64,000 nucleotides of DNA, taken from NCBI GenBank assembly GCA_041483895.1, contig JBGPGO010000011.1, positions 64,001 to 128,000 on the forward strand, read 5' to 3'. Of this stretch, positions 15,601 through 61,255 are shown piece by piece (within the stretch, counting starts at the first letter, position 1; every line of letters begins with the position of its first letter). The notes below the pieces were generated by a model, which was not told where the DNA came from, did no database searches, and saw only the letters and a list, made by a program, of their open reading frames with translations. The DNA is from Fimbriimonadia bacterium (GTDB lineage: Bacteria; Armatimonadota; Fimbriimonadia; Fimbriimonadales; JABRVX01). The translations under genes were made by a program, and so were the position numbers.

Positions 15601-16017
15601 CACTGGCACACGAACTATCGCGCGGACCAAGAAGGACTCCTCACTTTCCGGTACTGCATCGCATCGCACGGCAAGCTCGACACAAGCGCGGCGGAGCGAT
15701 TCGGCACGGAGCTCTCGCAACCGCTCGTTGTCGCGCCATCGGTGGGAGCGTCCGTCGCTGAGCCGCCGCTGGTTCTCTCGACGAACAAAGTGATCGCGAC
15801 ATCTCTCAAGCCGAGCGAGGACGGAAAGGCGCTCATTCTCCGGCTCTATGGCCCATCCGGTAAAACAGAGCGTGTCAGGCTTCGGTGGCGCAAGGGACTG
15901 CTTTCCGGCTGCTTTTTCTCGGACCTATCGGAAAGGCGCGGCGAACCGGCCGGCGAACCCGTGACAGTCCCTGGCTACGGGGTCGTTACTCTCCGCGCGG
16001 AACTGGCGCGGAACTAG
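12676..16017 (+). CDS. GH38-like glycoside hydrolase with N-terminal CBM-like (PL4 domain III-like) module
   Basis: HSHVDVGYT metal-binding motif, YWEDG, LYSEHTWG, C-terminal NNHWHTNY and LKPSEDG...LRL; N-terminal WPYVLPGP.D.WAG. Confidence 0.8.
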   Translation: MISALIGFALIATLLPDQVLWQIGGAALALAPDGYRLYQSDGLHIVGQSKDVAWPYVLPGPVDAWAGHRSHEHDVWFGLKRLKPGARCRVVVRLRDSHWSAPPKIALVVNGSVVGQFQTPTGHSDASLTGDDREASPSEWVIPLPTARLRIGNNVVGLRNGVGSWAVIDSVRMEGDGLEPAPVQPDVLVAAQAQEQAIYRTATGPVQRVNLEITNIGPPAEATWRLKGGAKGTLRLAAGRQVVSLETPAAKATAKRRCELKLGNKTVVRSVLIEAIRPWKVLLIPHSHVDVGYTNLQPEVEIIHKNAMLDAVALHHETRAFPDEARYRFTVETMWPLERFLSKGSIAETQPVLDAMKQGWMGIDAAYGNFCSALMRPEELMRAFRWAGEYRAKYGLPISVSSQTDAPGVTWGAVSALHQAGLRYLVLWPNNTDRIGGARKFHEDRPFYWVSPSGKERVLVWQMAAYGVAHALRGGRFTDRFHAYRSDDPTRDFIEPYIFPHLRSLADSGYPYDVYAMPWSLSDNCPIDADAPYAVRAWNKRYVTPRIVLATAAEAMRELEAKYAKRIPILHGDYSPYWEDGAGSSAAETAMNRASADRIVQAESLFAMLRPAAFPAAKAGEAWRNVLLYSEHTWGAYNSISEPDSDFVSKQWAIKQSFAREADRLSRELVGEAVGAEAGPAMVDVFNTNSWSRSDLVLIAASLSTAGDLVEDERGSPLPSQRLASGDLAVLVKNVPGFGARRLSIKAGRASVPDRPVAAKSTTLSSSRYEIVIEPTTGNIRSIRDLLLGKDLIDSKARHGFNEYLYLPGADLKDLKTSRGAKVAIVESGPLVATLRITSDAPGATRLTREIALVAGLDRIGITDQIDKLPIREKEGVHFAFPFAVPDGQMRVGIAWGVVRPDLDQIPGSCKEWMNTQRFVDVSNDSFGVTWTSLDAPLIEVGDVTARVLGARNNPDEWMRHLPKTQTLYSWALNNHWHTNYRADQEGLLTFRYCIASHGKLDTSAAERFGTELSQPLVVAPSVGASVAEPPLVLSTNKVIATSLKPSEDGKALILRLYGPSGKTERVRLRWRKGLLSGCFFSDLSERRGEPAGEPVTVPGYGVVTLRAELARN

Positions 16018-18779
16018 TCCTTTCCCTCACTCCGTATCGGGACATGCGGGAGGATCACATCTTTCCGGCGGCTCCCCGGTGTCACGACAAGCCTCACTAT
16101 CATGCCGCTCTTCGCCTCACACTCAACGACGGTATTGCCTGGAGCCCGAAGACGGAAGCGCGCGTCCCATTTCTTCGGCCATGCCGGCAGGACCCGAATC
16201 GCGCCGCCTTCCTCCAGCGAGTCGCACTGCAACAGCATAAGCTGGGTGGTCTCCAACAGGTTGCCGCCGTGGTTCTGGTCGGGCAGCCAGTCGAAGTTCG
16301 GGCCCCATGTCGCCGGCCAGCGGTACGCGGGGTTGGAATTGGCGCACTTGACCTGCAAAATCCGGCCCGCCTCATCGGCTAGGCCGAGCAAGGCGGCGCA
16401 ATTGCCGTCATAGCCCCATCCCACATCGAGGTGGTTGTGCCGCTTTTCGTATGCGGCAGTCGCCTCCCGCAGGAAGTGCGGGCGCGAGAGCGACACCTCG
16501 CGGTATGGCCAGATGGCGTACAGCGCCGGGTTTTCGCAGTTGGTTTCCTTGGGCTCGAATTTCTCCGCAGGTTGGAGTTGGCCCTCGCTCACCGGCAAGT
16601 CCGGGCAGGCGACTTTCATTCGGGCGAAGAACGCCCTTTGTTGGGCGGTCGTCATCGCTTCCGGCAGCCCCGTGAGCCGCCGCGTTACCGCAATCAGCCC
16701 CACTGTCGTCGGCATGTCGTTAACTACCCCCGACCAGTAGGTCTCGACAGCCTGGGCTGGGTCCAGCACGATCTTCCCGTCCTTCTTCGCGAACCGCGTG
16801 TCGAAGTAGCGCAGAACCGCCTCGGCCATCGGCAGCGCTTCCGTCTTGAGGAACTGGGAATCGCGCGTCCAGTCCCACCGGTCCAACATGAGCGAAACCA
16901 ACTCGGGACCTTGATTCCATGCGTACTGCCACCAGGGACACTGGCAATCCTTGGGTTGGAGTCCCTCCCGCTTCCAACCATAATCGCCGCCTGAATAGGT
17001 GCCGAAGACGGTCATTGTCTCCGGAAAGTACACGCCCTCGCATCCGTGATATTTCTTCGAGCGGGATTCGGCGAGCGGTACGGCCTTCTCGTACAACCTA
17101 AAGAGGGGCCGCATCATCTCGAAGTCCCCCGACATCAGCATCGGGTGATACATGTGGCGCACGTTCTGCCACCAATGGCAGTCGCCCCAATTTCGGAAGT
17201 CCGCGTTGTACGGCATCCCCATCGCCTTCGGCTCGACTGTGTAGTAGCCGCCGTTGAATTTGATGGGAAACTCCCCGCGTCCCTGGCATGCCTGAACGAA
17301 GCGCTGCAGGATATACCCTCTAGTTATCGCGGAGCCGGTCATGCCGTCGCGATGAGCGAGGCGCTTTCCATCCAGGTAGATCGCCGCTTCGGCCGTCCGG
17401 GCGTCGTACGTGGCCGCGACGTGAGTCCACCGACCGGCCTCTAAGCAATGGGGGGCCGCAAGGACGGTCTGACCGACGATCAGCCGCAGGCCGTCGCCGG
17501 GGTTGGTGTCGAACAGGAAACCGTCCGAACCACCCGCCGTCACCTTGTCAAATATCCGCCCATCCTTCAAGGAGTCGGACTTGAACCAGGCTTCCAGGGT
17601 GAGGCCTCGATCCAGATCGAGTTTCCCTCCATATTCCATATGGTTGTTGGGTTTGGGAAGGTCGGTCCCCGTCCAGGAGGCAAACCGGCCCTCCGCAATC
17701 GGCGCGACGCCGTCCTTCGATTGGAAGAGCTGTTGGACCTCGCTCTCACTCAACACACGGGTGTAGACGCTTGCCCGGCGCAGTTCACCGGGAAGGAGAT
17801 TTGAACCCGTCGATGCCGCGCCAATGCGCAGTTGGTGCATGTTCGTCGGTATGCCGCCAGAGCTGTCGCCCTCCACAAACACCCACGATCGCGACCAGAA
17901 CTCCTCCCACCACGCTTTCGTAGCAGCTTCCGATTTGGCGGCGTTGGCAGATCGCGCCTCTTCCTGTTTCAGTCCGGTCAGCCATTGATCGACTGTGTCG
18001 GTCTGTGCGGTGAATGTGGCAATCCGCAGGTCGATCGACTTGGTTTGCTTCGATACCAGTGATCGCTCCCCATGAGGCGAGAAACCTGCGCCGTTCATTC
18101 TGCCGCCGAAGGTTCGGTGGAGGATCGGATCAAAACAGCCGGGAAGGCCGGCGAGAGACTGATTCTCGAGGAGCCTTGGCACTACGGAAGTCTCATTCCG
18201 GTGATACCAAGTCACGCCTTCTCCCTTGACGAACACGTCGGGCGTTTCGACAAGCTCGAACGGCGCGTCGTGCACCGCCCAGGCGCTCCGCATTTCGCCG
18301 CCCTCCACAGTATGCGCCTTGTTTCGCCAGTTTTCCACCGACGCCCTAACGATGACGGACGTCGAAGATGAACACAAGACGTGGACGACATTCGCCTCCG
18401 AGTCTACGAACAGCCGGACCTTCAGACCGCCTCCCGAGATGACGATCGCGCCTTCGCGCAGCCGGAGTTCTTGGCGGAAAGCGCCTTGGATCAAGAGTTT
18501 TGGCTGAAAACTTACCCTGATCATTCCAAGTTTCAGGAACCGGCTGATTTCCGAAAGCGCGTCCGTACGGGCAATATGGAACAGCAGGTCTCCAGTTGAC
18601 TCTTCTACCCATGCGTTCAGCACGACCTCGCCGTTTCCCAAGGGCATGCTGCCGGCGGCATCCTGGGAAGGCGTCGCCCACACGACGTTTTGTTTATCCA
18701 GTTCGGCGGGGACCTTATCCGTCGAGAAACCGGTCATCGTCGCCATGATGGAAAGAACTGCTATCGCCAAGAGCTTCAT
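16014..18779 (-). CDS. DUF5703 / GH95-like glycoside hydrolase with inserted LamG-like domain
   Basis: SMPLGNGE, WWQNVRHMYHP, ENPALYAIWPY, RWPATWGPNFDWLPDQNHGG, VLPAWPKKWD; LamG motifs TLEAW and WTHVAATYD. Start set at MKLLAIA (18779), which has a GGAGG RBS. Confidence 0.8.
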   Translation of the reverse strand: MKLLAIAVLSIMATMTGFSTDKVPAELDKQNVVWATPSQDAAGSMPLGNGEVVLNAWVEESTGDLLFHIARTDALSEISRFLKLGMIRVSFQPKLLIQGAFRQELRLREGAIVISGGGLKVRLFVDSEANVVHVLCSSSTSVIVRASVENWRNKAHTVEGGEMRSAWAVHDAPFELVETPDVFVKGEGVTWYHRNETSVVPRLLENQSLAGLPGCFDPILHRTFGGRMNGAGFSPHGERSLVSKQTKSIDLRIATFTAQTDTVDQWLTGLKQEEARSANAAKSEAATKAWWEEFWSRSWVFVEGDSSGGIPTNMHQLRIGAASTGSNLLPGELRRASVYTRVLSESEVQQLFQSKDGVAPIAEGRFASWTGTDLPKPNNHMEYGGKLDLDRGLTLEAWFKSDSLKDGRIFDKVTAGGSDGFLFDTNPGDGLRLIVGQTVLAAPHCLEAGRWTHVAATYDARTAEAAIYLDGKRLAHRDGMTGSAITRGYILQRFVQACQGRGEFPIKFNGGYYTVEPKAMGMPYNADFRNWGDCHWWQNVRHMYHPMLMSGDFEMMRPLFRLYEKAVPLAESRSKKYHGCEGVYFPETMTVFGTYSGGDYGWKREGLQPKDCQCPWWQYAWNQGPELVSLMLDRWDWTRDSQFLKTEALPMAEAVLRYFDTRFAKKDGKIVLDPAQAVETYWSGVVNDMPTTVGLIAVTRRLTGLPEAMTTAQQRAFFARMKVACPDLPVSEGQLQPAEKFEPKETNCENPALYAIWPYREVSLSRPHFLREATAAYEKRHNHLDVGWGYDGNCAALLGLADEAGRILQVKCANSNPAYRWPATWGPNFDWLPDQNHGGNLLETTQLMLLQCDSLEEGGAIRVLPAWPKKWDARFRLRAPGNTVVECEAKSGMIVRLVVTPGSRRKDVILPHVPIRSEGKD

Positions 18780-19050
18780 CGAACCTCCGAGACTATTAGT
18801 ACGACGGCACGCCCTACCCTTCCCAGTCGGCAGAGGCTTCCCCGTCAACAATGAGGTTCGTGACGGATGATGGAGGCAGTGCATTTGCCATTCTCGACAA
18901 TCCTCCCCACCCCGCGACCAACTTTTGTTCATCGGGGATGCTTGGGAGGCAGTCAAAGCCGGGCCGGTTTTCGTCGTGGGAAGGAGCGTACCAATGGGAG
19001 TCGTCTCCGAGCCGGCGCGCAGGGGTGTGGATTCACTATGGTTCAACGCC

Positions 19051-22029
19051 TCAGGGCGATTGCCCCTTCATCAGGTAGTCGATGAGAGCCTGGTACATGT
19101 AGTCCGGCTTATTGAACGACGGCATCTGGGTTCCCGGGCTCACCGCTTGCGGGTCCTTCAGGAACCGGAACATCCAGTCCCGCTTCAGCCTCGCCGGTAC
19201 GAGGCCCAGGTCAGGGCCGAGTTTCTTGACGTCGCCCCCAACCACCATCTGCTTTCCGCCGACCGGATGACAGCTTTGGCACTTCAGATCGGCGAAGTAC
19301 TTGACCCCCGCAACGGCCAACGGATACACCAACTGTTCCGGCGGCGTGTACTCATAAGGTTCCGGCTGGTTGGACAGAGCCATCAGATACTCGGAAAGCT
19401 TCGTCGCCTCGGCATCGCTCAAGCGGAAATCGGGCATGCGGGCGTCTTGCCACCAACGTATTCGAAAGGGCCGTTTCAGGAACTTGAAAAGCCAGATGGG
19501 CTGAACGCGCTCTCCCTCCCTGGTCAGTTCCGGGCCTATTTTTCCTCCCTGGCCCGAGAATGTGTGACAGGCTGTGCAATCGTGTTGTGCGACGAGCCGA
19601 GCGCCCGCCACCAGTGGCGAATTCTCGTCCGCCATGCCCTGTTTATATTCGAGCGGCAGCTCTTGGGAGGTCAGCGAGAGCAGGTAGACCGCGATTGCGT
19701 TCACTGCGGCGGAATCGAGCCCAAACTTCGGCATGCGCGCCTTGAACTTGTCGGTGTCAAACGTCTTTGGATCCTTTATCTTGGCGAGCATCCAATCGTA
19801 CGTCGTTCGTTTGACCCCCTTGGCGTTGCCGAACTCCAGTAGGTCCGGTGTCTTGTCGCCCACGTGGGTAAGATCGGGCGCGGCCATCTTATAGAATCCC
19901 CGGATGTCGTGGCAGCCGGCGCATCCCTTATCGGCGACTAACTTGGCGCCGGCCTCGGCAGCGACGGTGTCGCGAAAGTCGAGGGGCAGGCCACGTCTCG
20001 CCGGCATATCACTTCCCAGCGAGAGCAGGTAGTCGCCTATCAAGACGCATTCATCGCTCGTCAGACCGAACACCGGCATTCTGCCATTCGGTAGATAGGC
20101 CTTGGGATTCTGGAGCCATGCGTAGAGCCAATCGGGCCGAACCTTTCGGCGCAGATTCGTAAGTTCGGGGCCGACAGTCGCTCCCTGGCCGAGTATCGTG
20201 TGGCATCCCATGCATCCCAACGTCTTGACCAATCGTTGTCCCGCCGCCAACCGCTCGGGGGACGGCGTGGGCATGGTGATCGGTCTCTGGTTGGCGCTTG
20301 TCAAGCCCTGTTGGGTGAGCAGGTAGGTCGCCACTTCCCTCGCTTGCTCGTCGCTAAGACCCAGGTTCGGCATTCGGGCATCCAGCGAGTGGGACTTGGG
20401 GTCTTTGACCCATGGCGCCAGCCATTCGGGCCTCAGCTTCTCGGCGACTCGGTCCAAAGCCGGGCCGCGTTTCGTCGTGGGCAGACCAAGGGCCTCCACC
20501 TTGTGGCAGCCGATACAGCCTGAAGCCTGGAAGAGCTGTGAACCCTCCAAGTACGTACTTTCGCCGACCAGTTGCCTAGAGTCTCCGTGGCACTTTCCAC
20601 AGGATGCCTGTACGGTCTCGCCATACAGAAGCGGCCTACCTTTTCCGACCAATTCCCCGTGCGCCTCGGACCGAGAAAGCGGCGTACCCCAACCGCCATG
20701 ACACGTGACGCACCCGAACCTCTCGACGGGATGCCACTGAAGCATCTTGACCGGGTGCGATCGGAACGGCTCCGGTGCGTTCTGGAACGCGGGATTATCA
20801 ATCGCCAAGTGACAGGTCGTGCAGCGGTCGGTGGTTCCGAGCCGCTCGCAGTAGATCTGCTGGACCTCGCGACCCCCGTTCCTGTTCCTCTCAAGGCGAC
20901 CTTCCACCAGTCGCAGGTCTCGCCGCACCGTGGCGACATATTCATCCAACTTCCGCTTCGATTCCTGAAGGCGTTGGTTTTCCTCCGGCGTCCGGCCGTC
21001 GGCCTCGGTCTTGTTGAGCTCCACCACATCTCGGGCCCACCGGGCCATCTGGGCGGCGGCCTTTACGTCGCCCTTTGCGCTTTCGACCTTCACTCCCGCA
21101 AGCGCACTGACGAGCGATTGTTGGGCCTCCTTCAGTTGCAGATCTGCCAGGTTCCGCTCCGCGGTGGCTTCGGACGGAAGCCCGATCATTTCCCTGCTGT
21201 GAAGGCGTTCCGATACCAGCAGATTGCGTCTGGCCGCCTCAACGCTCGAGTCGGCTTCGTCCACGTTCACTTGGATGTTTGCTTCTTCGAACGTGAGGCT
21301 CAGGTCCTCCGGTGCTTTGGCGTTGGGATAGGTGGTCTCGGTCTCGGGTTGGGTAGCTGCAGGCGCCTGAGAGCCTTTCGGGGCTTTCGAATCCTTGAAC
21401 TCCTTGTCAAGCTCGTCCATCTCCTTGGAATTCGCTTGCTGCGCGCCCCCCGGAGTACTCCCCCCTTTGCGCTCGCCTTGGCCTGCAGTCTTGTCATTGG
21501 GAGCTGGAGCGAGTTTGGGAGGTTGTCCTCCGACAGCCCCATTGCCTGAGGAGCTCTTATCTTGAGCGAACTCCTTGTCGAGCTCATCTAGCTCGCTCTT
21601 GGAGGCAGGCGCCGCGTTGGTCGCAGCCCCCGAAACTGTCTTAGGTTCAGTTCCGCCCTCACCGCTCGCGGACCCTTTGGATTGCACTCGCAATTCCGCC
21701 TCACCGAGATCGGCGTCAACCGCTTCCAGCTCTCCGGAAGCTTGGTCGAACGCTGCTTGCTCGACCAGATAGCGTTTCTTGGCAACGAGATAGTCGCCGA
21801 CGTAGTCGGGGTGCTGGAGTTTCCTGAGCAACTCAGCCCGTTGCGACAGAAGAATCTTGCGTTCAAGCACCGCGAAGCGATCCGCATATCTGATCCATTC
21901 CGGATGGGTGTCCACCCACATGGAGATGCCCATGACGATCATCACAAGGACACTGGTGACGAGAAACACGAGGTTCATCTTGAGGCTAGTCTGCGAGGGT
22001 CGCGGCCGTCCTCTCACTGCCACGGCCAT
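19051..22029 (-). CDS. Membrane-anchored octaheme cytochrome c of a Rieske/cytb complex
   Basis: Eight CXXCH motifs (CTTCH, CVTCH, CGKCH, CIGCH, CMGCH, CAGCH, CTACH, CQSCH); the last five are class-I domains with distal RMP/QMP Met; one N-terminal TM helix; start ATG 22029 overlaps the upstream gene end. Confidence 0.9.
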   Translation of the reverse strand: MAVAVRGRPRPSQTSLKMNLVFLVTSVLVMIVMGISMWVDTHPEWIRYADRFAVLERKILLSQRAELLRKLQHPDYVGDYLVAKKRYLVEQAAFDQASGELEAVDADLGEAELRVQSKGSASGEGGTEPKTVSGAATNAAPASKSELDELDKEFAQDKSSSGNGAVGGQPPKLAPAPNDKTAGQGERKGGSTPGGAQQANSKEMDELDKEFKDSKAPKGSQAPAATQPETETTYPNAKAPEDLSLTFEEANIQVNVDEADSSVEAARRNLLVSERLHSREMIGLPSEATAERNLADLQLKEAQQSLVSALAGVKVESAKGDVKAAAQMARWARDVVELNKTEADGRTPEENQRLQESKRKLDEYVATVRRDLRLVEGRLERNRNGGREVQQIYCERLGTTDRCTTCHLAIDNPAFQNAPEPFRSHPVKMLQWHPVERFGCVTCHGGWGTPLSRSEAHGELVGKGRPLLYGETVQASCGKCHGDSRQLVGESTYLEGSQLFQASGCIGCHKVEALGLPTTKRGPALDRVAEKLRPEWLAPWVKDPKSHSLDARMPNLGLSDEQAREVATYLLTQQGLTSANQRPITMPTPSPERLAAGQRLVKTLGCMGCHTILGQGATVGPELTNLRRKVRPDWLYAWLQNPKAYLPNGRMPVFGLTSDECVLIGDYLLSLGSDMPARRGLPLDFRDTVAAEAGAKLVADKGCAGCHDIRGFYKMAAPDLTHVGDKTPDLLEFGNAKGVKRTTYDWMLAKIKDPKTFDTDKFKARMPKFGLDSAAVNAIAVYLLSLTSQELPLEYKQGMADENSPLVAGARLVAQHDCTACHTFSGQGGKIGPELTREGERVQPIWLFKFLKRPFRIRWWQDARMPDFRLSDAEATKLSEYLMALSNQPEPYEYTPPEQLVYPLAVAGVKYFADLKCQSCHPVGGKQMVVGGDVKKLGPDLGLVPARLKRDWMFRFLKDPQAVSPGTQMPSFNKPDYMYQALIDYLMKGQSP

Positions 22030-22721
22030 ACCCACTTCCATTCCGGACCACGGAAGTACACTCCTATGAGAACCAACACCGTCAACATCAGTACAAACGT
22101 AACGAACCATCGTCTGCGAGCCCGTTCGACGCGTTTCTCATCGTCGAACATCGGACTTAGGACCAGTTTCGACAGAAGCAATGCGCTGACGATGAGCAGG
22201 ATGAAAGTTGGAATTCCATAGACCCTAATCGCGTCGGCGAAATCCGGTGCGACGGTGTGAATCCCGTTCCAGATGAGCCCGTCGACCGTCGGCACGGCGA
22301 CCGTGGCGATGAGAAACCCGATGGGCAACAGCACCATCCTCCCGCGGAAGAACGGTATCGCGCAGGCGGTAAAAACGAGCAGACCCGGCACGACCACACC
22401 GGCGATGAATGGCGGCGAATAATGCAGAAGCTCCTGGAGCGAGAGGAAGTACCATGGCGCCTTCGCTGGATTCGGAGTCTTTCCCGGATTGGCGAGTTCC
22501 TCGAGCGGCGAGGCAAAAAGGAATGACACGAGAAGCAGGGCCGCGAACATCAACCCGAACGCCAGGAACTCCCGCGCGACGAGATGCGGATATGTGCTGA
22601 CTCGATCATCGTCCTGTTCGACCGTGTGCGGCGGCCTGCCCTCTATGAACCCGAGAATGCCGTATTCCTTGCCCTCCGATGGGTGCACGGAAGAGGTGTT
22701 ATCCTCGCCAGATTGCGTCAT
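22014..22721 (-). CDS. Cytochrome b6 subunit IV / cytochrome b C-terminal subunit
   Basis: TYPHLVARE, PLEELANPGKTPNPAKAPWYF (PEWY equivalent), C-terminal YFRGPEW; ATGA overlap with cyt b. Confidence 0.88.
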   Translation of the reverse strand: MTQSGEDNTSSVHPSEGKEYGILGFIEGRPPHTVEQDDDRVSTYPHLVAREFLAFGLMFAALLLVSFLFASPLEELANPGKTPNPAKAPWYFLSLQELLHYSPPFIAGVVVPGLLVFTACAIPFFRGRMVLLPIGFLIATVAVPTVDGLIWNGIHTVAPDFADAIRVYGIPTFILLIVSALLLSKLVLSPMFDDEKRVERARRRWFVTFVLMLTVLVLIGVYFRGPEWKWVWPWQ

Positions 22722-23572
22722 TCAAGTCCCCCCGAGAAACCGTCCTTGCGGACGCGCCAGAAATGGTAGGCCATGAGGACAAACACAGCGATCGGCAAGA
22801 AGATGACATGAAACACGTAGAACCGGATCAACGTCGGTTGGTCCACCGAGAAGCCGCCGAGAAGGACGTACCGGACTTTATCTCCGACCGCCGGGATCGC
22901 GCCGGCCATGTTCGTGCCGACCGTGATGGCCCAGTACGCAAGTTGATCCCATGGGAGCAGATACCCAGTGAAGCTCAGCAACATCGTGAGAACCAGCAGC
23001 ACCACGCCGACGACCCAATTCAACTGCCGAGGCGCCTCGTACGCCTTCTGCAGGAATACACGAAGCATATGGAGGCACACCACAATCACCATGGCGTTTG
23101 CCCCCCACCGGTGCATGTTCCGGAGTATCTGACCTAGAGACACGACGTTTCCCAGATCCACCATGTCTTTGTAGGCGTGATCGACCGAGGGCACATAGAA
23201 GAACATGAGCAGGACGCCGGTGACCGTCAGGATGAAGAACAGTCCTGCCGCCAAGCCTCCCAGCCCATAGGTGCAAGAGAACCTGAGGGCGCCTCGACTG
23301 ATCGTTGCCGGGTGCAAGTGCATCCAAGAACTGGTGATCGCGATTTCGGACTGTTCCTTTGGGGTCAACGGGAACGGCTTGGGAAATGCGCACTCCCAGG
23401 CCGTGGAACGGACGATGTCGTTGCGGGCCGCGTTCAGGAAACCCAACGAAAACAGGGTTCGAACCTTACCGAACCACCGCTTGTCAGCTAACTGCCGGCC
23501 CGACTCGGTTTGGGCCCAGGCGCCAGACAGCTTGCGCCACACTCTTCTCTCGTGAACCTGATCGGCGCTCAT
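22718..23572 (-). CDS. Cytochrome b6-type (split) cytochrome b N-terminal subunit
   Basis: Heme b ligands HRWGANAMVIVVCLH and FHVIFLPIAVFVLMAYH (b6-type spacing); SFTGYLLPWDQLAYWA. Confidence 0.92.
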   Translation of the reverse strand: MSADQVHERRVWRKLSGAWAQTESGRQLADKRWFGKVRTLFSLGFLNAARNDIVRSTAWECAFPKPFPLTPKEQSEIAITSSWMHLHPATISRGALRFSCTYGLGGLAAGLFFILTVTGVLLMFFYVPSVDHAYKDMVDLGNVVSLGQILRNMHRWGANAMVIVVCLHMLRVFLQKAYEAPRQLNWVVGVVLLVLTMLLSFTGYLLPWDQLAYWAITVGTNMAGAIPAVGDKVRYVLLGGFSVDQPTLIRFYVFHVIFLPIAVFVLMAYHFWRVRKDGFSGGLE

Positions 23573-24039
23573 GTTCGAAAAGTTTCCCGGTTAGAGAGTG
23601 TTGTCCTCTTGTCCACAATCAACTCCCCACCGGGGCCAAGCGATAGTTCATAGACAGCAAGTGGTTTTGGCGCGGGACCAGCGTAATTCTTACCGTTCTC
23701 ACGATAGCGGCTTCCGTGGCAGGGGCAGAAGAACCCAGTTCCCGAGGCGTCCGTCCGAACCGTACATCCCAGATGAGTGCACACCGACGAAAGCGCAAGG
23801 AACGAATTGCCGTCCCGAACGATGAACACCTTCTGGTCTTCTATATACGTAGCCGTCTTGTCGGGAAAATCCTGAGGCATCCCGGCCTTGAACCGCAGAG
23901 GCTTCCCGAACTGGACGTTCGGGATGAACGAACGGATGGATCCCAGCACAATCAGCGCCACGGAGACGAGGAACGTGATAAGCCCGCCCAGAAAGAACCT
24001 ACGTGACCACTGCTCTTCCCTTTGTGTGTCAAACGGCAC
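23569..24039 (-). CDS. Rieske [2Fe-2S] protein
   Basis: Tat-like SRRFFLGG plus TM helix; CTHLGC, CPCHGSRY, GPAPKPL. Confidence 0.93.
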   Translation of the reverse strand: MPFDTQREEQWSRRFFLGGLITFLVSVALIVLGSIRSFIPNVQFGKPLRFKAGMPQDFPDKTATYIEDQKVFIVRDGNSFLALSSVCTHLGCTVRTDASGTGFFCPCHGSRYRENGKNYAGPAPKPLAVYELSLGPGGELIVDKRTTLSNRETFRT

Positions 24040-25882
24040 GCTGCGCCTCTTCGAATCGTCCCATCCACATGGCGTCGACCGGACATCGTTCGATGCACAA
24101 TCCGCATCGCGTGCATTTTTCCTCGTCCTTCAGCATGACGGACCAACTACCGCCAGTTTCTTTGGACTCGTTCGACATTTCGTCAATAGAAAGTCCATGT
24201 TTGGCTTGGGCGAATTCAGCAACCTTCGAATCGGCATCAATCCTGTCGATGGAGACGATCTTGAGGCATCCGAAGGGACAAATGTCCACGCATCCGCCGC
24301 ACAACACACATTTGGCCGAATCCAGCATAGGGCTGCGGTTGCACTGAAGGCAGCGAGCCGCTTCCGCAACCGCCTGTTCCCGGGTGTAACCCGTTTCCAC
24401 CTCGCTGACCCCGGTTCGTCGGTCCAGCGAAATCGTCGGCACCAAATGGCGCGCCACTCTGTCATACTTTTCCGGCATTTGGTGCATCGGCAATCGAATG
24501 AGACGGGGCCGCTCGGTTTCCTCGTCACTTGGGGCCTGTCCCGACAAGTAGTGATAGATCGCCATTGCTGCCCTGCGACCGTCGGCGATGGCTTCGATGG
24601 CGGTCCGGGCGCCGAACACCACATCTCCGCCGACATACACGCCAGGAACGTTGGTCGCCATCGTTTTTGGCGACGCGTTGACGAAACCGGCAGGTGTCAT
24701 GTCCAACTTGACGTCGTCACCTAAGAACGAAAGGTCCGGCAGTTGCCCTACGGCGAGCAGCACCGTGTCGCATTCGAACAGTTCTTCCGTTCCGTGATCA
24801 AACGTCGGAGCGAAACGGCCTGCCTGATCGAAGACCGATGAGCACCGGACCGTCTCCAAACCGATACACTTGCCGTTGGCCGAGAGAATTCTCGTGGGGC
24901 CACGGGAGTTGTGAATGACGATACCCTCCCGAACGGTTTCGGCGATCTCTTCCTCATGGGCAGGCATCTCTTCCTCGGATTCGAGGCACACCATATGAAC
25001 CTCGGGGGCCCCCATACGGCGCGCCGCCCGCGCGACATCCAGCGCGGCGCCATAGCTCTTGTCGCCGGCGAAATCGATTCCCGCCTCGCGGGCCGCGGTA
25101 CGGGCCACGTCAACGGCGACATTGCCGCCTCCGATGACGACGACCTTCTTCCCGATCTCGACCTTATAGCCCAGATTAACGTTCAGCAGGAAGTCAATGC
25201 CGTTGATCACGCCGTCGGCGTCGACCCCGTCAATCCGCAACTGGCGCCCTTTCTGGGCGCCGACGGCCAGAAACACGGCTTGATAATCATGAAGCAGATC
25301 GGCGAAATTGATCTGCTCTCCGACACGGGTATTCGTCCGGATCTCAACGCCTTTGAGAAGGTTCTCAATCTCTTCCAGGAGCGCGGCTCTCGGAAGGCGG
25401 TATTCCGGTATGCCGAGAAACAGCATGCCACCGAGCTTCTCGGTTGCTTCGAACAGCGTGACTTCGTAGCCCAGCAGCGTAAGATCATGGGCGGCAGTGA
25501 CGCCGCTGGGACCTGCGCCGATGACAGCGACTCGCTTGTTCTGCTTCGGGTGGCGACGAAAATCGCCTCCGGTCCTTCGGCCTCCGGAGGCAAAGTCCAT
25601 GGCGGCTCTTTTCAACGCTCGGATAGAAAGTGGGGCGTCATGACACCCCCTGCGGCAGGCCGTCTCGCAGGGATGGCCGCAAATCCGCGCGCAAATATTT
25701 ACGAACGGATTTGGCTGGCTTGCGATGTCGTAGGCCGCATCAAAATCCCCCGATGCAATGGCTTCGATATACCCCTGCGCGTTCGTATGAACGGGACACG
25801 CAGCACGGCAATTCACAGTCTTTCGAAGCCAGCCTGCGTCAACCAACATCGCCTTGTATCTTTTACCGACGGCTTGTCCCAT
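24029..25882 (-). CDS. FAD-dependent NAD(P)H oxidoreductase (GltD/NfnB/DPD-like) with C-terminal 2x[4Fe-4S] ferredoxin domain
   Basis: CRAACP and CARICGHPCETAC Fe-S motifs; GAGPSG (FAD); GGGNVAVD (NAD(P)H); RCLQC, CVLCGGCVDICP, CTRCGLCIERCP; no signal peptide. Confidence 0.9.
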   Translation of the reverse strand: MGQAVGKRYKAMLVDAGWLRKTVNCRAACPVHTNAQGYIEAIASGDFDAAYDIASQPNPFVNICARICGHPCETACRRGCHDAPLSIRALKRAAMDFASGGRRTGGDFRRHPKQNKRVAVIGAGPSGVTAAHDLTLLGYEVTLFEATEKLGGMLFLGIPEYRLPRAALLEEIENLLKGVEIRTNTRVGEQINFADLLHDYQAVFLAVGAQKGRQLRIDGVDADGVINGIDFLLNVNLGYKVEIGKKVVVIGGGNVAVDVARTAAREAGIDFAGDKSYGAALDVARAARRMGAPEVHMVCLESEEEMPAHEEEIAETVREGIVIHNSRGPTRILSANGKCIGLETVRCSSVFDQAGRFAPTFDHGTEELFECDTVLLAVGQLPDLSFLGDDVKLDMTPAGFVNASPKTMATNVPGVYVGGDVVFGARTAIEAIADGRRAAMAIYHYLSGQAPSDEETERPRLIRLPMHQMPEKYDRVARHLVPTISLDRRTGVSEVETGYTREQAVAEAARCLQCNRSPMLDSAKCVLCGGCVDICPFGCLKIVSIDRIDADSKVAEFAQAKHGLSIDEMSNESKETGGSWSVMLKDEEKCTRCGLCIERCPVDAMWMGRFEEAQRAV

Positions 25883-25889
25883 TGTTCAT

Positions 25890-27275
25890 TTAGAACGCGA
25901 AGCTAAACACCAACCCAAGCGCATTGTTCTTCCCTCCCGCATTCAGATCTTTGGTGTACTCTAGGCCCGCCCAGAAATTCGTCCTCAAATAGTAGGTGAC
26001 GTTGGCCGTGATTGCTTTGCTGAACAACCCTGAGTTCGCTGGGGCATCCAATAAGCTGCCGCCGTTGACGCGGTTGTATTTCAGCACGGCCATCGCCCGT
26101 TGTCCGATCACGCGGTCGAGCTCTATGAAATAGCCGTGCCAATTGACCTTCTCGCCGGTATCGAGCGGATTGTCCGCGCTCCCGGAGAGGTAGCTTGCCA
26201 GCAGGTTATACTGCTTGATCTTCATGCCGGGCGTCTTCTCAATCAGTTCGCCGAAGCTGATGCTGAGATCGACGCCGCCCATTCGGTAACTGTTGGTGGC
26301 GCCCGACTCCACCGTGGTCCGTCCGGCGAAGCCGACAAGACCGATGAAGGAGTCTCCGCCAAAATAGGCATTCAGTCGCGCAGAAAAGTCCCCGGCATCC
26401 CGTGCTGTGGCGCCACCGGCGCCGTTACTGTTGTAGAAACCGACCTCCCATAGGAAGCCCACCAGCGTGTTCATTGGGTCGGCTTCTTCCATTTCCGCCT
26501 TCTCCTTACCTTGGTCCTTACCTTGGTCCTTCGTGGGCTCGACGGAAGCTCCAGTGGAGTCGGAACCGTTGGAGTCACCCACATCCGGCTTTTCATTGTC
26601 TCCGCTAGGCTTGCTGTGGATCAGCTCCTTGCTCACAGACGAACCGAACGTGCCGAATAACCGCACACCCTGATGCTCTTCGGCAAGATTGACGCCGCCG
26701 AGGTCCAAGTCCTGCAAACTATAGCCGGAGCGCGTGAACAGGTCGTGCTCAGTGACGCCGTGCTCAACAGGATCCAACTTGCCGACTTGCAAGTTGGCAT
26801 CGGTTCCACCAAGGTAGGTTGCGATCAGAGAAACCTTCCCAACATCGGTCCCCCCGTCCTCTGTGGACACTTCGCCAAAGAATCCCAAGTCGGGGGCGAT
26901 GGAATCCGCCGCGAAGATTCGGAAAGCCCATGGGCTTTCAATGCTTGTGGGCGTCTGGTTGCCGTTGACGCTTCGATCAAGATTGAGGTCATTCTCTACA
27001 AGGATCGCAACCGGTATCTGATCCAACAAGCTCAGATTCTTGTCCTCGGGAATGGGTACCTTATTGACAGACCTGTCACCGGGCTGCTGGTAGCCATGAA
27101 GCTGAAAGTTCTTTCCAAATGCGTTCAGCTTCGGAACCGCCGTGTGGCAACGCAAACAGGTCGTTTTGTATTTTCTTGCGAAATACGGGATCGCGATCGC
27201 CTTCTGGAGCACTACTGCTTCACCAACTAACAACGTGGCCAGCGTGAGCCAAGCCACCTTTGATCTACAATACAT
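25890..27275 (-). CDS. cyc2: Cyc2-like fused monoheme cytochrome c / outer-membrane porin
   Basis: Signal peptide then IPYFARKYKTTCLRCHTAVPKLNAFG, matching the Cyc2 PxFAR[Q/K][T/Y]-CxxCH-PxL signature; alternating beta-strand pattern ending in terminal Phe (LVFSFAF). Confidence 0.78.
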   Translation of the reverse strand: MYCRSKVAWLTLATLLVGEAVVLQKAIAIPYFARKYKTTCLRCHTAVPKLNAFGKNFQLHGYQQPGDRSVNKVPIPEDKNLSLLDQIPVAILVENDLNLDRSVNGNQTPTSIESPWAFRIFAADSIAPDLGFFGEVSTEDGGTDVGKVSLIATYLGGTDANLQVGKLDPVEHGVTEHDLFTRSGYSLQDLDLGGVNLAEEHQGVRLFGTFGSSVSKELIHSKPSGDNEKPDVGDSNGSDSTGASVEPTKDQGKDQGKEKAEMEEADPMNTLVGFLWEVGFYNSNGAGGATARDAGDFSARLNAYFGGDSFIGLVGFAGRTTVESGATNSYRMGGVDLSISFGELIEKTPGMKIKQYNLLASYLSGSADNPLDTGEKVNWHGYFIELDRVIGQRAMAVLKYNRVNGGSLLDAPANSGLFSKAITANVTYYLRTNFWAGLEYTKDLNAGGKNNALGLVFSFAF

Positions 27276-27364
27276 ATCCTTCTCCTATCCCGAAATGCGG
27301 ATATCGCTTAACATTGGTCCGTGCGCGACCCGCCACCATCGAAAGGGCGGTCACGACACTTCTC

Positions 27365-27970
27365 CTAGGACACTTTGAATACCACCTTGGCCTCTCCTGA
27401 AGCCGGCACCTGCACCGTCTGGGTGGCAGCTGTGAAGTCTGGGTGCCAGACCTTGATCGTGTAGTTGCCCGGGGGAACGTTGGAAATTTTGAACAGACCT
27501 TTGTCATTGGTCACATCGAAAAATGGGTTGGGCAATATCACAATGTATGCCTTCATGTTTGCGTGGATGTGACACCGAATGGGCACGACGCCAATCTTGT
27601 CGAAGGTCACTTCAGACGAGTCGCCCTTCTTGGTTTGACTGACGTTGAAAGTTTTCGTACGCGAGCTTGAGAAAATGTTGTGAAAGAACGGATCTGAATT
27701 GTTAAAGTGAACTTTCGTACCCTTCATAATCGCCAAGACATGCGGGGCGAATTCCTTGTTCTTTTGATTCATATTGGCCCCCCGAGAGGACGGCGAGAAA
27801 GAGCCGGGGACTTCAGTCAGACTAACAACCGCAAATGGGACGCGTGTGGCGGTGCTTCCTTTGACGGATTCGACCATGCCGATAATATCGCCGTTCGCAT
27901 TGGCAATTGTAGTGGCCGCAAGCGCCAGTACAGCCGTAAGTGGAAAATAGAGCTTTTTCGGATGGAACAT
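27365..27970 (-). CDS. Periplasmic cupredoxin-domain protein with carboxypeptidase-regulatory-like Ig domain
   Basis: Signal peptide; type-1 Cu ligands FHNIFS ... CHIHANM; C-terminal NVPPGNYTIKVWHP; GAGGAGG RBS. Confidence 0.8.
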   Translation of the reverse strand: MFHPKKLYFPLTAVLALAATTIANANGDIIGMVESVKGSTATRVPFAVVSLTEVPGSFSPSSRGANMNQKNKEFAPHVLAIMKGTKVHFNNSDPFFHNIFSSSRTKTFNVSQTKKGDSSEVTFDKIGVVPIRCHIHANMKAYIVILPNPFFDVTNDKGLFKISNVPPGNYTIKVWHPDFTAATQTVQVPASGEAKVVFKVS

Positions 27971-29040: not shown

Positions 29041-30252
29041 GTGACATACATAGCAAATTTAGCCCGACGGCAGACTTCGCGGCCGGCGCTGGCAGCCCTA
29101 ATCGTACTCGCGGTCACCGCACAGGCGATGGCGGCAACCTATTCGGTCAACGTCGGTGCCATAAAGGCGAAGTGGGACGATGTGTCCGGAGCCAACTTCT
29201 CCGGCACCGGAATCACCTACTTATATGACGGCCAGGTGTTGATTGTCCTGCCGTCTGGATACGATTCGATCAAGTTCTCGGCGAACTGCTCTGCGGAGAA
29301 CACGTCCTGGTGGTGGTCAAGAGACTTCAAGTTCCAAATCAGAGTTACCGAGGTCAAGGACGGGAACCCGCCGTACATCGATGCGACGACAGCGGCTACC
29401 GGAGGCTTCAATATCGTCGGCCTCTGGGGTAAGAGCAGCGGCACCGTAACGTCTCCCACGGTTTATGTAGGGACCGGAAACTGGAAAATATTCCGTGTAG
29501 CAGTCTATGTGGAAATAGTGAACAAGAAGAACAGCGGATGGATCGGCAAGGGATTCCCTGTGTTCAAGTACCCATCCCGGATTTGTGGCCTAAGCGCATA
29601 CCGGTCGTGCGAGTGGATCCACGAGGCATACCAGCGCCGATGGGCGTTTGAAGCTCTATACAATGGCCAACTGGATATTACTGGGGGTTCATGGATAAGC
29701 ACGGATGAGCTTTGGTACGAATTCATCAATGCCTTGGGCGACGCCGCCAAAGATGATCCCGTCGAAGTAGGTTTCTGGGGCGTTCAAACGCTCCACAATG
29801 TGTTCAATGCATTCATCGCGGAGCTCAATATGTATATCTTGACCCAAGGTTGGAGATCCTCGTGGTGGACGCAGCTCCTGATGGGCGCGACCAACGACAT
29901 GAGGCTCAACTGCGCGAGCGAACAAGGCTACCTCGAACGGCTGTTTTATTCGTTGGACGATAAGGCAACCAAGATAAGCCAAGTCAAATCCATCGTGACA
30001 ACCGAAAGCAGCCTTTTGGCCAAATTCGGGAACTTCTCATATAGCGGCACCACCGTGTACGGCAAAAGTGGTGAGTACATTTTTTCAACGTACCTGACCA
30101 CTCAAAACTACTACCTGATGTTCTTCGGCACGAAGATCACGGACCCGGCCCTTGGCACGCTGAGGAGCCTAATGCAGTACTACTCGAATCTTATCGCGGC
30201 CGACCAGACCATCGTCAATGGACGGACCAGTGACGCGGGCCTGTTGTATTGA
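29041..30252 (+). CDS. Secreted hypothetical protein
   Basis: AGGAGG RBS, GTG start, signal peptide ending AQAMA, 403-aa ORF followed by a terminator-like hairpin. Confidence 0.75.
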   Translation: MTYIANLARRQTSRPALAALIVLAVTAQAMAATYSVNVGAIKAKWDDVSGANFSGTGITYLYDGQVLIVLPSGYDSIKFSANCSAENTSWWWSRDFKFQIRVTEVKDGNPPYIDATTAATGGFNIVGLWGKSSGTVTSPTVYVGTGNWKIFRVAVYVEIVNKKNSGWIGKGFPVFKYPSRICGLSAYRSCEWIHEAYQRRWAFEALYNGQLDITGGSWISTDELWYEFINALGDAAKDDPVEVGFWGVQTLHNVFNAFIAELNMYILTQGWRSSWWTQLLMGATNDMRLNCASEQGYLERLFYSLDDKATKISQVKSIVTTESSLLAKFGNFSYSGTTVYGKSGEYIFSTYLTTQNYYLMFFGTKITDPALGTLRSLMQYYSNLIAADQTIVNGRTSDAGLLY

Positions 30253-40799: not shown

Positions 40800-40845
40800 A
40801 TCGTTTGACCTCCCTTGGGTGGGCGAGGGATTGATGTCGCACGTT

Positions 40846-41100
40846 TCATATGTGGCTGACCCAATCTTCGTTGGCTGACCGGTCCTTGCCGATCGCCCGT
40901 AAACGGTATCGATTCAACGCGACACCTGCCCACACCAATTCAACCACACCAAATGGCCAGGCCCCTTGCAAAAAACCATAGGTCGCGGCTAGCAGGCATG
41001 AGACGGCGAATCCGAGGACGAACCACGTAGCCCGGGCCTCCATCGCATAGCAAATTACCATTGCCGTGCAGGCAAACAGACCGAATGCAGTGAGTAGCAT
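40846..41100 (-). CDS. Small membrane protein (about 3 TM)
   Basis: Hydrophobic 84-aa ORF with YGFLQGAWPFGVVELVW; starts 3 nt after the MFP stop. Confidence 0.75.
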   Translation of the reverse strand: MLLTAFGLFACTAMVICYAMEARATWFVLGFAVSCLLAATYGFLQGAWPFGVVELVWAGVALNRYRLRAIGKDRSANEDWVSHI

Positions 41101-41102
41101 CG

Positions 41103-50356: not shown

Positions 50357-50357
50357 G

Positions 50358-60643: not shown

Positions 60644-60651
60644 CCGGACCG

Positions 60652-61077: not shown

Positions 61078-61097
61078 GCGCCCTCTCGGTTTCGACG

Positions 61098-61119
61098 CTC
61101 ATGGCGGCATTTTACCGGC
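61098..61119 (+). repeat. 22-bp direct repeat, copy 1 (copy 2 at 62041-62062)
   Basis: CTCATGGCGGCATTTTACCGGC vs CTCATAGCGGCATTTTACTGGC, 20/22 identical. Confidence 0.7.
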
Positions 61120-61171: not shown

Positions 61172-61255
61172 TTATCGGCGAGTTGATCGGGCCAAACTCA
61201 ACCAGGGCCGAGAGTGCAGAGGTAACATCCATACTTCCATCAGAGGAGGGAGTTA

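Follow-up and report, generated by a model that had tools for sequence, protein, structure and literature searches.

The seven genes packed at positions 19051–27970 of a 64,000-nucleotide stretch of Fimbriimonadia bacterium DNA (the window) raise the question of how, and in which direction, a bacterium that reads as a heterotroph could move electrons between its quinone pool and the cell surface. The original prediction combined a Cyc2-like outer-membrane cytochrome and a cupredoxin with a Rieske/cytochrome b complex in one operon. A literature search found no description of such an operon, as had been supposed.

Gene content of the operon

All seven ORFs lie on the minus strand. The spacings from the first to the last gene are +89, +7, −11, −4, −4 and −97 nt, the last being reckoned from the first ATG of the octahaem cytochrome c ORF, whose true start probably falls on an ATG/GTG codon within 22041–22017. 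The widest gap is thus 89 nt, as predicted, and the predicted gene identities agree with the motifs, Pfam domains and eight CXXCH sites. A sequence scan placed no terminator-like sites within any intergenic gap. In general, the scan was uninformative because its counts match those of shuffled sequence (5 promoters observed and 5.4 expected; 17 terminators and 14.2, respectively).

The first gene (27365–27970) encodes a periplasmic type-1 copper protein of 201 aa, in which a cupredoxin is fused with a CarboxypepD_reg-like domain (PF13620). The ligand set of a type-1 (blue) copper site, H97, C133, H136 and M139 (His...Cys-x2-His-x2-Met), is kept by all 13 homologues aligned. The profile matches were a weak halocyanin domain and CarboxypepD_reg. 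No rusticyanin model matched at E ≤ 0.001, the presence of one in the libraries being unconfirmed. The original comparison with rusticyanin is thus better worded as one with a cupredoxin that carries a fused domain.

The second gene (25890–27275) encodes a protein of 461 aa without a Pfam or NCBIfam match. Cyc2 proteins are defined by AXPXFAR[Q/K][T/Y] shortly before a lone CXXCH, by PXL after it and by a 16-stranded OprO/OprP-like porin that follows the haem domain, with a cleavable signal peptide and a length of at least 365 aa. The window protein carries the consensus motif, one CXXCH (C40, C43, H44), PXL in the form PKL and a C-terminal Phe; the strict motif was present in 24 of 30 close homologues. 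Its AF2 model is a barrel (pTM 0.69) with a low-confidence haem domain (residues 21–59, pLDDT < 50). The top Foldseek matches were all 16-strand porins, the best being OprP 2o4v (Z 23.6, rmsd 3.2, 303 aligned residues), so that the beta-barrel on which the original prediction depended is indeed predicted. A hydrophobic stretch at residues 11–29, a candidate signal peptide, was recognized by hydropathy alone. Based on motif and modelled fold, the gene is assigned to the Cyc2-family fused monohaem cytochrome-porins.

The link between these two proteins is supported by complex prediction, which scored 0.73 where the best control reached 0.00; the score mark was attained by 116 of 157 solved pairs and 2 of 215 mismatched pairs. 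The runs shared at least 57% of contacts, with partner pLDDT of at least 90. Cyc2 residues 35–42, beside C40/C43, contact cupredoxin residues 134–138, which include the ligand H136. In the prediction, the copper site thus docks on the haem segment of Cyc2.

The third gene (24029–25882) encodes a cytoplasmic GltD/NfnA-like FAD/Fe-S oxidoreductase of 617 aa with Fer4_20, Pyr_redox_2 and Fer4 domains and with a pair of [4Fe-4S] motifs at each terminus; its nearest solved relative is 9bov/9bp5 (E 7e-87). The protein itself lacks the NADP motif; among 120 homologues, YRR was found in none and the xLE motif in 116. The proposal of an NAD(P)H-linked oxidoreductase can thus be narrowed, the cofactor likely being NAD(H) rather than NADP(H).

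The Rieske [2Fe-2S] protein (23569–24039; 156 aa, one TM helix) best matched 9rk4 (Kuste4569, E 1.6e-27) and 9rk3 (Kustd1480, E 1.4e-19) in the PDB. Its S-R-Y sequence contains the Ser/Tyr pair that marks the putative high-potential type, the Ser being kept in 8/8 relative loci. The next two genes encode a four-helix cytochrome b6-like subunit (22718–23572; 284 aa) and subunit IV (22014–22721; 235 aa, weak PF00032 match), with four and five hydrophobic segments, respectively, by hydropathy. Subunit IV has APWY at the Qo motif, as in all eight relative loci. According to the alignment, cytochrome b lacks the CxGG of a covalent haem cN: the Cys position is Gly here and in 35 of the 41 closest homologues, and basal members of the group retain the Cys. 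H85 is invariant in 81/81 loci, and the basic C-terminal residues R273/R275 in 27/27. We infer that H85 may coordinate a haem b at the dimer interface and may correspond to Kuenenia His43/His62.

The last gene (19051–22110) encodes a membrane-anchored octahaem cytochrome c composed of a TM helix, a long helical stalk, a three-haem domain and five class I His/Met domains. Besides the eight CXXCH, three extra His and five Met are invariant in 10/10 sequences, and the three-haem domain is likely bis-His ligated. Its AF2 model has a pLDDT of 63.6 and a pTM of 0.40, the three-haem part being of low confidence.

Conservation and relation to known systems

Of 228 Fimbriimonadia genomes, eight, from two families, carried the seven-gene block intact. 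All six GTDB loci had the seven genes in identical order, three of them ending at a contig edge inside the first or last gene, and a further complete locus (L175) was found. None of the three flanking window genes tested was shared by any of the eight relative loci. Among class genomes holding the operon-type cytochrome b, Cyc2 co-occurred in eight of nine, the ninth being cut by the contig start. Thus, the Cyc2 and cupredoxin genes stay beside the Rieske/cytochrome b genes in relatives.

The core had been called anammox-type. It does resemble the complexes Kustd1480-1485 and Kuste4569-4574 of Kuenenia stuttgartiensis (Hauser et al. 2025, PMC12954380), sharing a four-helix cytochrome b with a separate five-helix subunit IV, a FAD/Fe-S NAD(P) oxidoreductase gene inside the operon and a Ser-bearing high-potential Rieske, for which the Kuenenia proteins are the nearest PDB matches. 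NfnABC entry 9bp5 is the closest solved relative of both flavoproteins, and the hexa- or octahaem cytochrome c that replaces cytochrome f in Kuenenia is similar to the window protein in haem count and long helices. In contrast to Kuenenia, the window system lacks the haem cN cysteine and an HAO-like subunit and belongs to a heterotrophic host, and cupredoxin and Cyc2 genes head its operon. Furthermore, APWY occurs in many phyla. Subfamily G (Dibrova et al. 2017, PMC5600118), or the APWY complexes (Kao and Hunte 2014, PMC4122944), are described in the sections cited here as patchily spread over phyla and as sharing with the window APWY, a split cytochrome b, a neighbouring NAD(P)-binding Fe-S oxidoreductase and a Mid+/high-potential Rieske; these same sections make no mention of an outer-membrane cytochrome or a copper protein, both of which the window operon encodes. 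Armatimonadota does not occur in the text of Dibrova et al. The core is therefore of this known, widespread kind and is not anammox-specific, an assignment from the APWY motif of subunit IV, the cytochrome b tree of this analysis containing no named reference sequences from either study.

The Geobacter extHIJKLMNOPQS cluster (Cbc6; Jahan et al. 2018, PMC5877670) also combines an OprP-like porin with a Rieske protein, cytochrome b and multihaem cytochromes. ExtP is the best NCBIfam model for the window cytochrome b, and ExtQ is subunit IV-like. However, the window proteins, unlike the Geobacter equivalogs, score under the cut-offs of ExtP (278.2 < 290 bits), ExtQ (52.7 < 150) and ExtS (82.9 < 100). 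In that description, ExtI is a porin with no haem mentioned, and the cluster includes a rhodanese and a selenoprotein but lists neither a cupredoxin nor an NAD(P) flavoprotein.

As to Cyc2, the Acidithiobacillus ferrooxidans protein, Mariprofundus Cyc2PV-1 and Leptospirillum Cyt572 (Keffer et al., 10.1101/228056) share with the window protein the motif, the single CXXCH and PXL; the 16-strand OprP-like barrel (predicted here) and a length above 365 aa are likewise common to characterised Cyc2. The partner genes differ, being a quinol-site complex and a flavoprotein in the window and a terminal oxidase in known Cyc2 systems. The A. ferrooxidans rus and petI operons (Cyc2, rusticyanin, Cyc1/CycA1, aa3, bc1) follow the same logic of outer-membrane haem, blue copper, cytochrome c and Rieske/cytochrome b, and both directions have been proposed for this pathway. 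There, two operons, a canonical bc1 and NADH from complex I are used, whereas the window has everything in one operon, in which the copper protein is of another kind, an oxidase is missing and the flavoprotein is part of the set.

Direction of electron transfer

The description of the host as a sugar-degrading heterotroph agrees with the glycoside hydrolases on the operon flanks (Pfam) and with the failure to find RuBisCO in the 95%-complete genome, RuBisCO being the carbon-fixation enzyme searched for. An IS21 element and integrase-like genes are also located near the operon. The genome contains menaquinone genes, NuoF, two DmsE-type multihaem genes followed by candidate porins, and one haem-copper oxidase (caa3), which sits in an alternative complex III cluster.

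It was originally suggested that the operon forms a self-contained wire, either for electron uptake with reverse or bifurcating transfer or for export. According to our calculation, raising an electron to NAD+ from a carrier at +200 to +300 mV takes 2.6–4.1 charges per electron, and the complex provides one membrane crossing; the complex alone thus cannot lift Fe(II) electrons to NAD+, and self-contained uptake by reverse transfer to NAD(P)H is excluded. Instead of running as a straight wire, the circuit branches three ways at the quinol site. With the products of the seven genes, the host could exchange electrons with compounds outside the cell. We consider the outward direction more likely than the inward one, export in any form having slightly better than even chances.

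We tentatively favour the following pathway, at somewhat short of even probability. The Rieske/cytochrome b complex would split the two electrons of menaquinol. One would leave by way of the Rieske protein, octahaem cytochrome, copper protein and finally the haem of Cyc2; the other would pass to the flavoprotein, which may assemble on the cytochrome b dimer via the interface haem held by H85, and reduce NAD+. Re-oxidation of this NADH by complex I would raise the proton yield. The calculated potential of the outer acceptor must exceed +180 to +330 mV. This speaks against the pathway, since humic quinones and Fe(III) oxides mostly fall below this range at neutral pH and Cyc2 of Mariprofundus has a potential of only +208 mV; candidate acceptors would be oxidised manganese or Fe(III) bound in organic complexes, in acidic surroundings poor in oxygen.

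Forward bifurcation to NAD(P)+ was published as a proposal for Kuste4569 (+303 mV) and Kustd1480 (+335 mV) and is still unproven in anammox; the main difficulty, according to Hauser et al. (PMC12954380), is leak to quinone. Here the leak may be smaller because haem cN is absent. The missing Cys does not prove a dead Qn site, since bc1 complexes reduce quinone without haem cN and the Cys is commonly lost (29 of 81 loci across the clade). Since the operon has no oxidase, and a relative without Cyc2 (L166) has the same core next to a cupredoxin and a haem-copper oxidase, Cyc2 may take the place of the terminal acceptor module; this pattern comes from few loci, with a single oxidase confirmed by family scan. 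At locus L147, an uptake-type [NiFe] hydrogenase and its cytochrome b, the putative quinol source, precede a Cyc2-bearing core. In A. ferrooxidans, an outward route from bc1 through rusticyanin to Cyc2 has been proposed from omics for anaerobic Fe(III) reduction.

Uptake is possible but doubtful. In this case, Cyc2 would take electrons from dissolved Fe(II) or from humic-iron shuttles in reduced form and pass them via the copper protein to the octahaem hub, and from there to the caa3 oxidase or back through the Rieske protein to menaquinone, NADH giving the second, low-potential electron (confurcation). Every characterised Cyc2, including all those assayed in vitro, is an Fe(II) oxidase with the same motif. 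The cited part of Kao and Hunte (PMC4122944) regards APWY complexes as running in reverse. A green sulfur bacterium-like (Chlorobaculum-like) contig has the same parts plus a ferredoxin, and Cyc2 is read there as the electron inlet of a phototroph. The device could reverse, given high NADH and an outside donor, because the quinol-site reaction is near equilibrium; the predicted Cyc2-copper contact is compatible with either direction. On the other hand, one crossing is insufficient for NAD+, and by reasoned bookkeeping confurcation translocates fewer charges than NADH via complex I with Fe(II) electrons going directly to the oxidase. The oxidase is in the genome but, in contrast to the rus operon, not in this operon, and with no RuBisCO found a lithotrophic reductant is not evidently needed.

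It is less probable, and in our view unlikely, that the flavoprotein oxidises NADH, feeding the b haems and inner-site menaquinone reduction with a Q-cycle outlet via Cyc2, as a self-contained, low-yield chain balancing redox in anoxic sugar breakdown. The likely NAD(H) specificity fits a catabolic donor, and such a route is strongly downhill, so near-equilibrium tuning would be unneeded. Furthermore, at locus L038 (G156) a cupredoxin-Cyc2 pair is accompanied by a membrane Fe-S protein resembling NapH and by a flavoprotein homologous to that of the window, with no Rieske/cytochrome b beside it, an arrangement that hints at NAD(H) being connected directly to the outside module. However, Hauser et al. 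(PMC12954380) point to the large energy loss where complex I exists, and NuoF is present; haem cN, which would mediate quinone reduction at the inner site of b6f-type complexes, is absent here, and high-potential chain electrons still require an acceptor.

Lower still is the probability of co-regulated but separate circuits, with the core feeding the caa3 oxidase and cupredoxin-Cyc2 acting as a portable cassette for another periplasmic partner, peroxide removal, metal handling or sensing. The pair does occur with other membrane modules (L038, L039), and Cyc2 was present in only 2 of 19 well-flanked metagenome relatives of the core. Of 40 Armatimonadota Cyc2-like genes that are more distant, 13 have a two-haem gene beside them, the one examined being a CcP/MauG peroxidase, and the function of cluster 3 Cyc2 is rated most uncertain in the literature. 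Against this stands a gene order that does not vary among eight genomes from two families, with junctions that overlap or span 7 nt. In addition, other Cyc2 lineages adjoin the same core on the Chlorobaculum-like and one Opitutaceae-like contig; since three distinct Cyc2 sequences pair with three distinct cytochromes b, repeated recruitment of Cyc2 to this core is suggested.

Finally, a chance neighbourhood or assembly artefact, to which the nearby mobile-element genes and the lack of a match in two same-family genomes (0/2) might point, is very improbable and is refuted by seven other genomes that keep the same genes in the same order between unrelated flanks.

Organization of the operon and its host

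Every individual part of the operon at window positions 19051–27970 is already known; as a whole, the operon is a real, conserved and apparently undescribed variant, with a predicted haem-to-copper interface that is apparently new. All ORFs of the originally predicted run of seven co-oriented genes with gaps of at most 89 nt were recovered on the minus strand between 27970 and 19051: the cupredoxin comes first, followed by the Cyc2-like porin, flavoprotein, Rieske protein, cytochrome b, subunit IV and octahaem cytochrome c. The intergenic spacings are +89, +7, −11, −4, −4 and −97 nt, and Pfam/NCBIfam scans directly confirmed five of the seven ORFs. GC3 of the seven genes (0.63–0.76) lies within the genome's 5–95% range. 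A promoter/terminator scan of the operon gave counts at chance level. Consensus boxes for Rex, FNR, CRP and Fur-like regulators were sought in about 400 nt upstream of nine loci, and none beat shuffles (lowest fraction 0.08), so regulation gives no clue to direction.

The original prediction knew of no description of the Cyc2/cupredoxin and Rieske/cytochrome b parts in one operon. In agreement, none was found in the accessible portions of the open-access literature, and the available text of PMC10654088, 10.1101/855817 and 10.1101/2022.05.06.490989 describes no operon of Cyc2 and cupredoxin with the core (Rieske protein, split cytochrome b/subunit IV, flavoprotein and multihaem cytochrome c). 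The nearest published cluster is Geobacter extHIJKLMNOPQS, which combines a porin, Rieske/cytochrome b and multihaem cytochromes; however, its accessible description (PMC5877670) lists neither the cupredoxin nor the flavoprotein found in the window operon. Membership in the Geobacter ext equivalogs was rejected by the NCBIfam scan. The core itself is of a known kind, subfamily G, noted together with such oxidoreductases in many lineages (PMC5600118).

The host is a member of Armatimonadota from the order containing Fimbriimonadaceae but from a separate family, its RpoB being 65–67% identical to those of Fimbriimonas/Fimbriimonadaceae genomes, to which the named homologues also belong. The host genome (95% complete) encodes a single haem-copper oxidase, located within an alternative complex III cluster, as well as NuoF and the futalosine route to menaquinone; neither RuBisCO nor cytochrome bd was found in it. 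Further candidate parts for extracellular electron transfer lie at C9:156874-160904, C18:1689-4174 and C3:61291-64317 of this genome. They include two DmsE/MtrA-type multihaem genes, each followed by an ORF of 550–620 aa without a family match (candidate porin), and a multihaem–cytochrome b561 fusion adjoining a NapC/NirT-like gene.

Porin, copper protein and inner-membrane core

The porin has the AXPXFAR[Q/K][T/Y] motif, one CXXCH, PXL and a length above 365 aa, the features by which Cyc2 is defined (Keffer et al., 10.1101/228056). The anticipated beta-barrel was borne out: the AF2 model is a barrel (mean pLDDT 68, pTM 0.69; haem domain below 50) whose best structural matches are 16-strand porins, headed by OprP 2o4v (Z 23.6, rmsd 3.2, 303 aligned), the same template named for Cyc2 by these authors. 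Pfam and NCBIfam gave no family match for the porin, a PDB sequence search with the Cyc2-like alignment returned nothing meaningful, and an Atlas feature search found only unnamed or porin clusters, mostly from Acidobacteriota. The profile search retrieved 2,990 representatives at E ≤ 0.001 and just 17 at 1e-30. In the phylum sample, 77 of 401 genomes had some porin match. Among the neighbourhoods of 40 such matches, none carried the full set, three had a cupredoxin, one a homologous flavoprotein and two a divergently placed Rieske/cytochrome b pair. A two-haem gene adjoins the more distant Armatimonadota Cyc2-like genes in 13 of these 40 loci (among L041–L060); nine rows of the Cyc2 tree are labelled 'CcP', and the family scan, which covers locus L045 alone, identified its neighbour as a CcP/MauG peroxidase. 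A Cyc2 from one Armatimonadota MAG has been assigned to cluster 3 (PMC9671151).

The copper ligands H97, C133, H136 and M139 of the cupredoxin are identical in 13 of 13 homologues. A joint prediction of the copper protein with haem and the mature porin scored 0.73, and the best of three controls 0.00. Of 157 solved complexes, 116 pass the mark applied, as do 2 of 215 mismatched pairs; these rates are only approximate for this run because it used its own alignments and a ligand. The runs share at least 57% of contacts, with partner pLDDT of at least 90, and the surest contacts join porin residues 35–42, beside the haem cysteines, to cupredoxin residues 134–138, around the copper ligand H136. 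This predicted contact has the geometry expected for direct electron transfer; the modelled interface also takes in porin residues 64–70 and cupredoxin residues 93–98. Since no solved Cyc2 was found by sequence, and a 2026 review (PMC13741234) states that none exists, recall of a similar complex is unlikely. The host genome has a second cupredoxin of the same type at C12:35359-38969, where the genes that follow encode a HAMP-GGDEF-HD signalling protein and a 306-aa product without assignment. A CusA/CusB/TolC-like RND efflux set is located at window positions 37704–43831, about 10 kb from the operon.

Among solved structures, the Rieske protein is closest to 9rk4 and 9rk3, which are Kuste4569 and Kustd1480 of the anammox bacterium Kuenenia, with midpoint potentials of +303 and +335 mV (PMC12954380). 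The window protein carries a Ser/Tyr pair, which is regarded as a high-potential signature (PMC4122944). Subunit IV has the APWY motif and five hydrophobic segments. The octahaem cytochrome c was modelled (pTM 0.40) with a stalk of helices, five His/Met domains and three haems whose ligation is likely bis-His. The top solved match of the flavoprotein, 9bov/9bp5, was also retrieved for the Kuenenia enzyme. At the NADP-motif site, xLE is present in the window flavoprotein and in 116 of 120 homologues, and YRR, typical of NADP-specific relatives, in none of the 120; by the DsrL rule (PMC7596348), this motif points to NAD(H).

The window cytochrome b has no cysteine for haem cN; Gly takes this position in 35 of the 41 closest homologues and Cys in 72 of the next 79. 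Loss of this cysteine was dropped as a special mark of Cyc2-linked complexes, as it is missing in 29 of 81 wider loci, most of them without a visible Cyc2. Natural loss in the clade, with retention in basal members, offers a ready comparison for the role of the haem. H85, identical in all 81 loci, is, by putative equivalence, a candidate ligand of the interface haem proposed for Kuenenia. The host genome has three further cytochrome b genes: with a Rieske gene, behind a type II DMSO-family molybdoenzyme and an FeS/haem fusion (C7:123969-129949); with a Rieske and a nine-haem cytochrome (C15:33029-35975); and fused to cytochrome c (C8:7287-8591). Together with alternative complex III, these form an unusually large collection of quinol-site complexes.

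Direction of electron flow

The midpoint values used were −70 mV for menaquinone and −320 mV for NAD+, and a Rieske potential of +260 to +335 mV was assumed. Forward bifurcation was then computed at −155 to +70 meV per quinol, i.e., near equilibrium, and its acceptor has to lie higher than +180 to +330 mV. For an electron that starts at +200 to +300 mV, the computed cost of reaching NAD+ is 2.6–4.1 charges. The straight wire from the surface to NAD(P)H in the original prediction is contradicted by this cost, which also excludes a direct backward passage of electrons from Fe(II) to NAD+ inside the complex. Based on the energetics, the complex would be a reversible three-way junction.

The reading we favour, with some reserve, is forward bifurcation of menaquinol with export through Cyc2: one electron would pass outward via Cyc2, and NADH would be formed from menaquinol. 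Bifurcation has already been put forward in print for the closest relatives, and for A. ferrooxidans it has been suggested that Cyc2 can carry electrons outward (PMC8790237). Export is also favoured because the operon contains no oxidase, and Cyc2 occupies the place of the oxidase in L166, a locus having the core, a cupredoxin, a ferredoxin and a haem-copper oxidase without Cyc2. In addition, locus L147 (1837–14160) sets a distinct Cyc2 behind a quinol source, its genes encoding an uptake-type [NiFe] hydrogenase and, immediately after it, a monohaem cytochrome, flavoprotein, Rieske protein, fused cytochrome b, hexahaem cytochrome and Cyc2. Possibly from Opitutaceae (the name comes from one neighbour's cluster), it is a candidate H2-to-outside electron chain.

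Against export, APWY complexes have been proposed to operate in reverse (PMC4122944), Chlorobia Cyc2 has been interpreted as an inlet (PMC8125076, PMC12285243), and every Cyc2 tested so far is an Fe(II) oxidiser, the potential of one being only +208 mV (10.1101/228056). Uptake, with electrons entering inward through Cyc2, is possible but somewhat less probable. NADH-fed export, in which the electrons leaving through Cyc2 would come from NADH, is unlikely.

Occurrence of the block and related arrangements

The closest cupredoxin–Cyc2 pairs in two other Armatimonadota families (L038:4067-11972 and L039:5998-11670) are followed by a NapH-like membrane Fe-S protein and not by Rieske/cytochrome b; L038 adds a homologous flavoprotein, and L039 extra cupredoxins and a ferritin-like protein. 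Such loci would suit an uncoupled cassette, with the pair not in one circuit with the core, but the integrity of the block within its clade speaks the other way and we consider this improbable. A chance neighbourhood can be dismissed almost entirely: the synteny proposed for the seven-gene set held in all six loci of the GTDB scan (same order, 42–68% identity) and in a further locus, L175. Within the class, close Cyc2 was found in 8 of 228 genomes (E ≤ 1e-25) and close cytochrome b in 9 of 228 (E ≤ 1e-60). Six of the positive genomes are apparently those of the GTDB scan, one is the window's own, and the last Cyc2-positive one carries L175. In the ninth cytochrome b genome, the contig begins inside the flavoprotein gene and the assembly has no Cyc2 match. 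This reverse test, from cytochrome b to a Cyc2 neighbour, covers the class only within Armatimonadota.

Neither of two same-family genomes matches the operon, and three flanking window genes are absent from all eight relative loci. The unrelated flanks and patchy presence suggest that the block moves or disappears as a unit. No sign of a mobile vehicle was seen among plasmids and viral contigs: the plasmid search gave one weak N-terminal match for the porin and none for cytochrome b at 1e-50, and two viral loci had cytochrome b only.

The metagenome scan for the core confirmed at least 598 of 601 stretches, and the best 80 were kept. A Cyc2-like gene stands at three of these 80 loci; among the 19 flanked by 5 kb or more on each side, two have one. 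One Cyc2-bearing locus, L095, belongs to the window's own clade. Another, L143 (7209–15306), encodes Cyc2, Rieske protein, a stand-alone 2x[4Fe-4S] ferredoxin, APWY cytochrome b, subunit IV, octahaem cytochrome and cupredoxin, with thioredoxin, DUF3570, ApbE and DsbD genes downstream. Its cluster members are named Chlorobium and Chlorobaculum, and its cytochrome b cluster has 144 members. This could be a second Rieske/cytochrome b complex of green sulfur bacteria, linking Cyc2 to ferredoxin; our literature search found no published description of such an arrangement. The porins of L143 and L147 align to the window porin across the first 60–70 residues only and are placed elsewhere in the tree. 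Their cytochromes b are also placed apart, that of the window falling in an 11-row clade (SH-aLRT 98, quick tree). Low pairwise porin similarity and separate tree positions suggest repeated recruitment of Cyc2, the trees being quick ones with weak deep branches and an unrooted history. Two haem-less ORFs with no Pfam match, L119:5217-6839 and L157:5240-6778, resemble porins at the C-terminus and lie upstream of flavoprotein–Rieske–cytochrome b genes.

We tentatively propose a recurring, undescribed module in which a quinol-bifurcating complex would end, on the outside, in a Cyc2 porin. Through this family, known only as iron oxidases, heterotrophs may respire high-potential acceptors outside the cell and at the same time form NADH from menaquinol. 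On at least three occasions the core may have acquired a different Cyc2 lineage, with a ferredoxin in place of the NAD enzyme in green sulfur bacteria. The cyc2 genes are commonly taken as iron-oxidation markers in metagenomes; if those beside the core export electrons, marker counts would credit some of the redox cycling of iron and humics to the wrong process. NAD(P)+ reduction by Rieske/cytochrome b bifurcation has stayed a proposal because it was tied to slow-growing anammox bacteria. The available text on Kustd1480-1485 (PMC12954380) proposes no high-potential outlet, for which the operon supplies a candidate. Its small soluble pieces (copper protein, Rieske protein and flavoprotein) and the predicted interface make the bifurcation proposal testable.

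The window is a variable region, containing an IS21-type transposase and IstB pair, a phage-integrase-family ORF and a KfrA-like ORF (49196–51113 and 59990–62047). The glycoside hydrolase downstream of the operon (16014–19046) was rejected as a member of the system, being missing from 8 of 8 relative loci. Two ORFs have no Pfam match: one of 866 aa (33530–36130) and one of 403 aa (29041–30252), which is oriented divergently to the operon and is missing next to it in relatives. The window also encodes a 2540-aa protein of repeated right-handed beta-helix domains (51290–58912) and a PDZ-TPR-CHAT protein (44559–48143).
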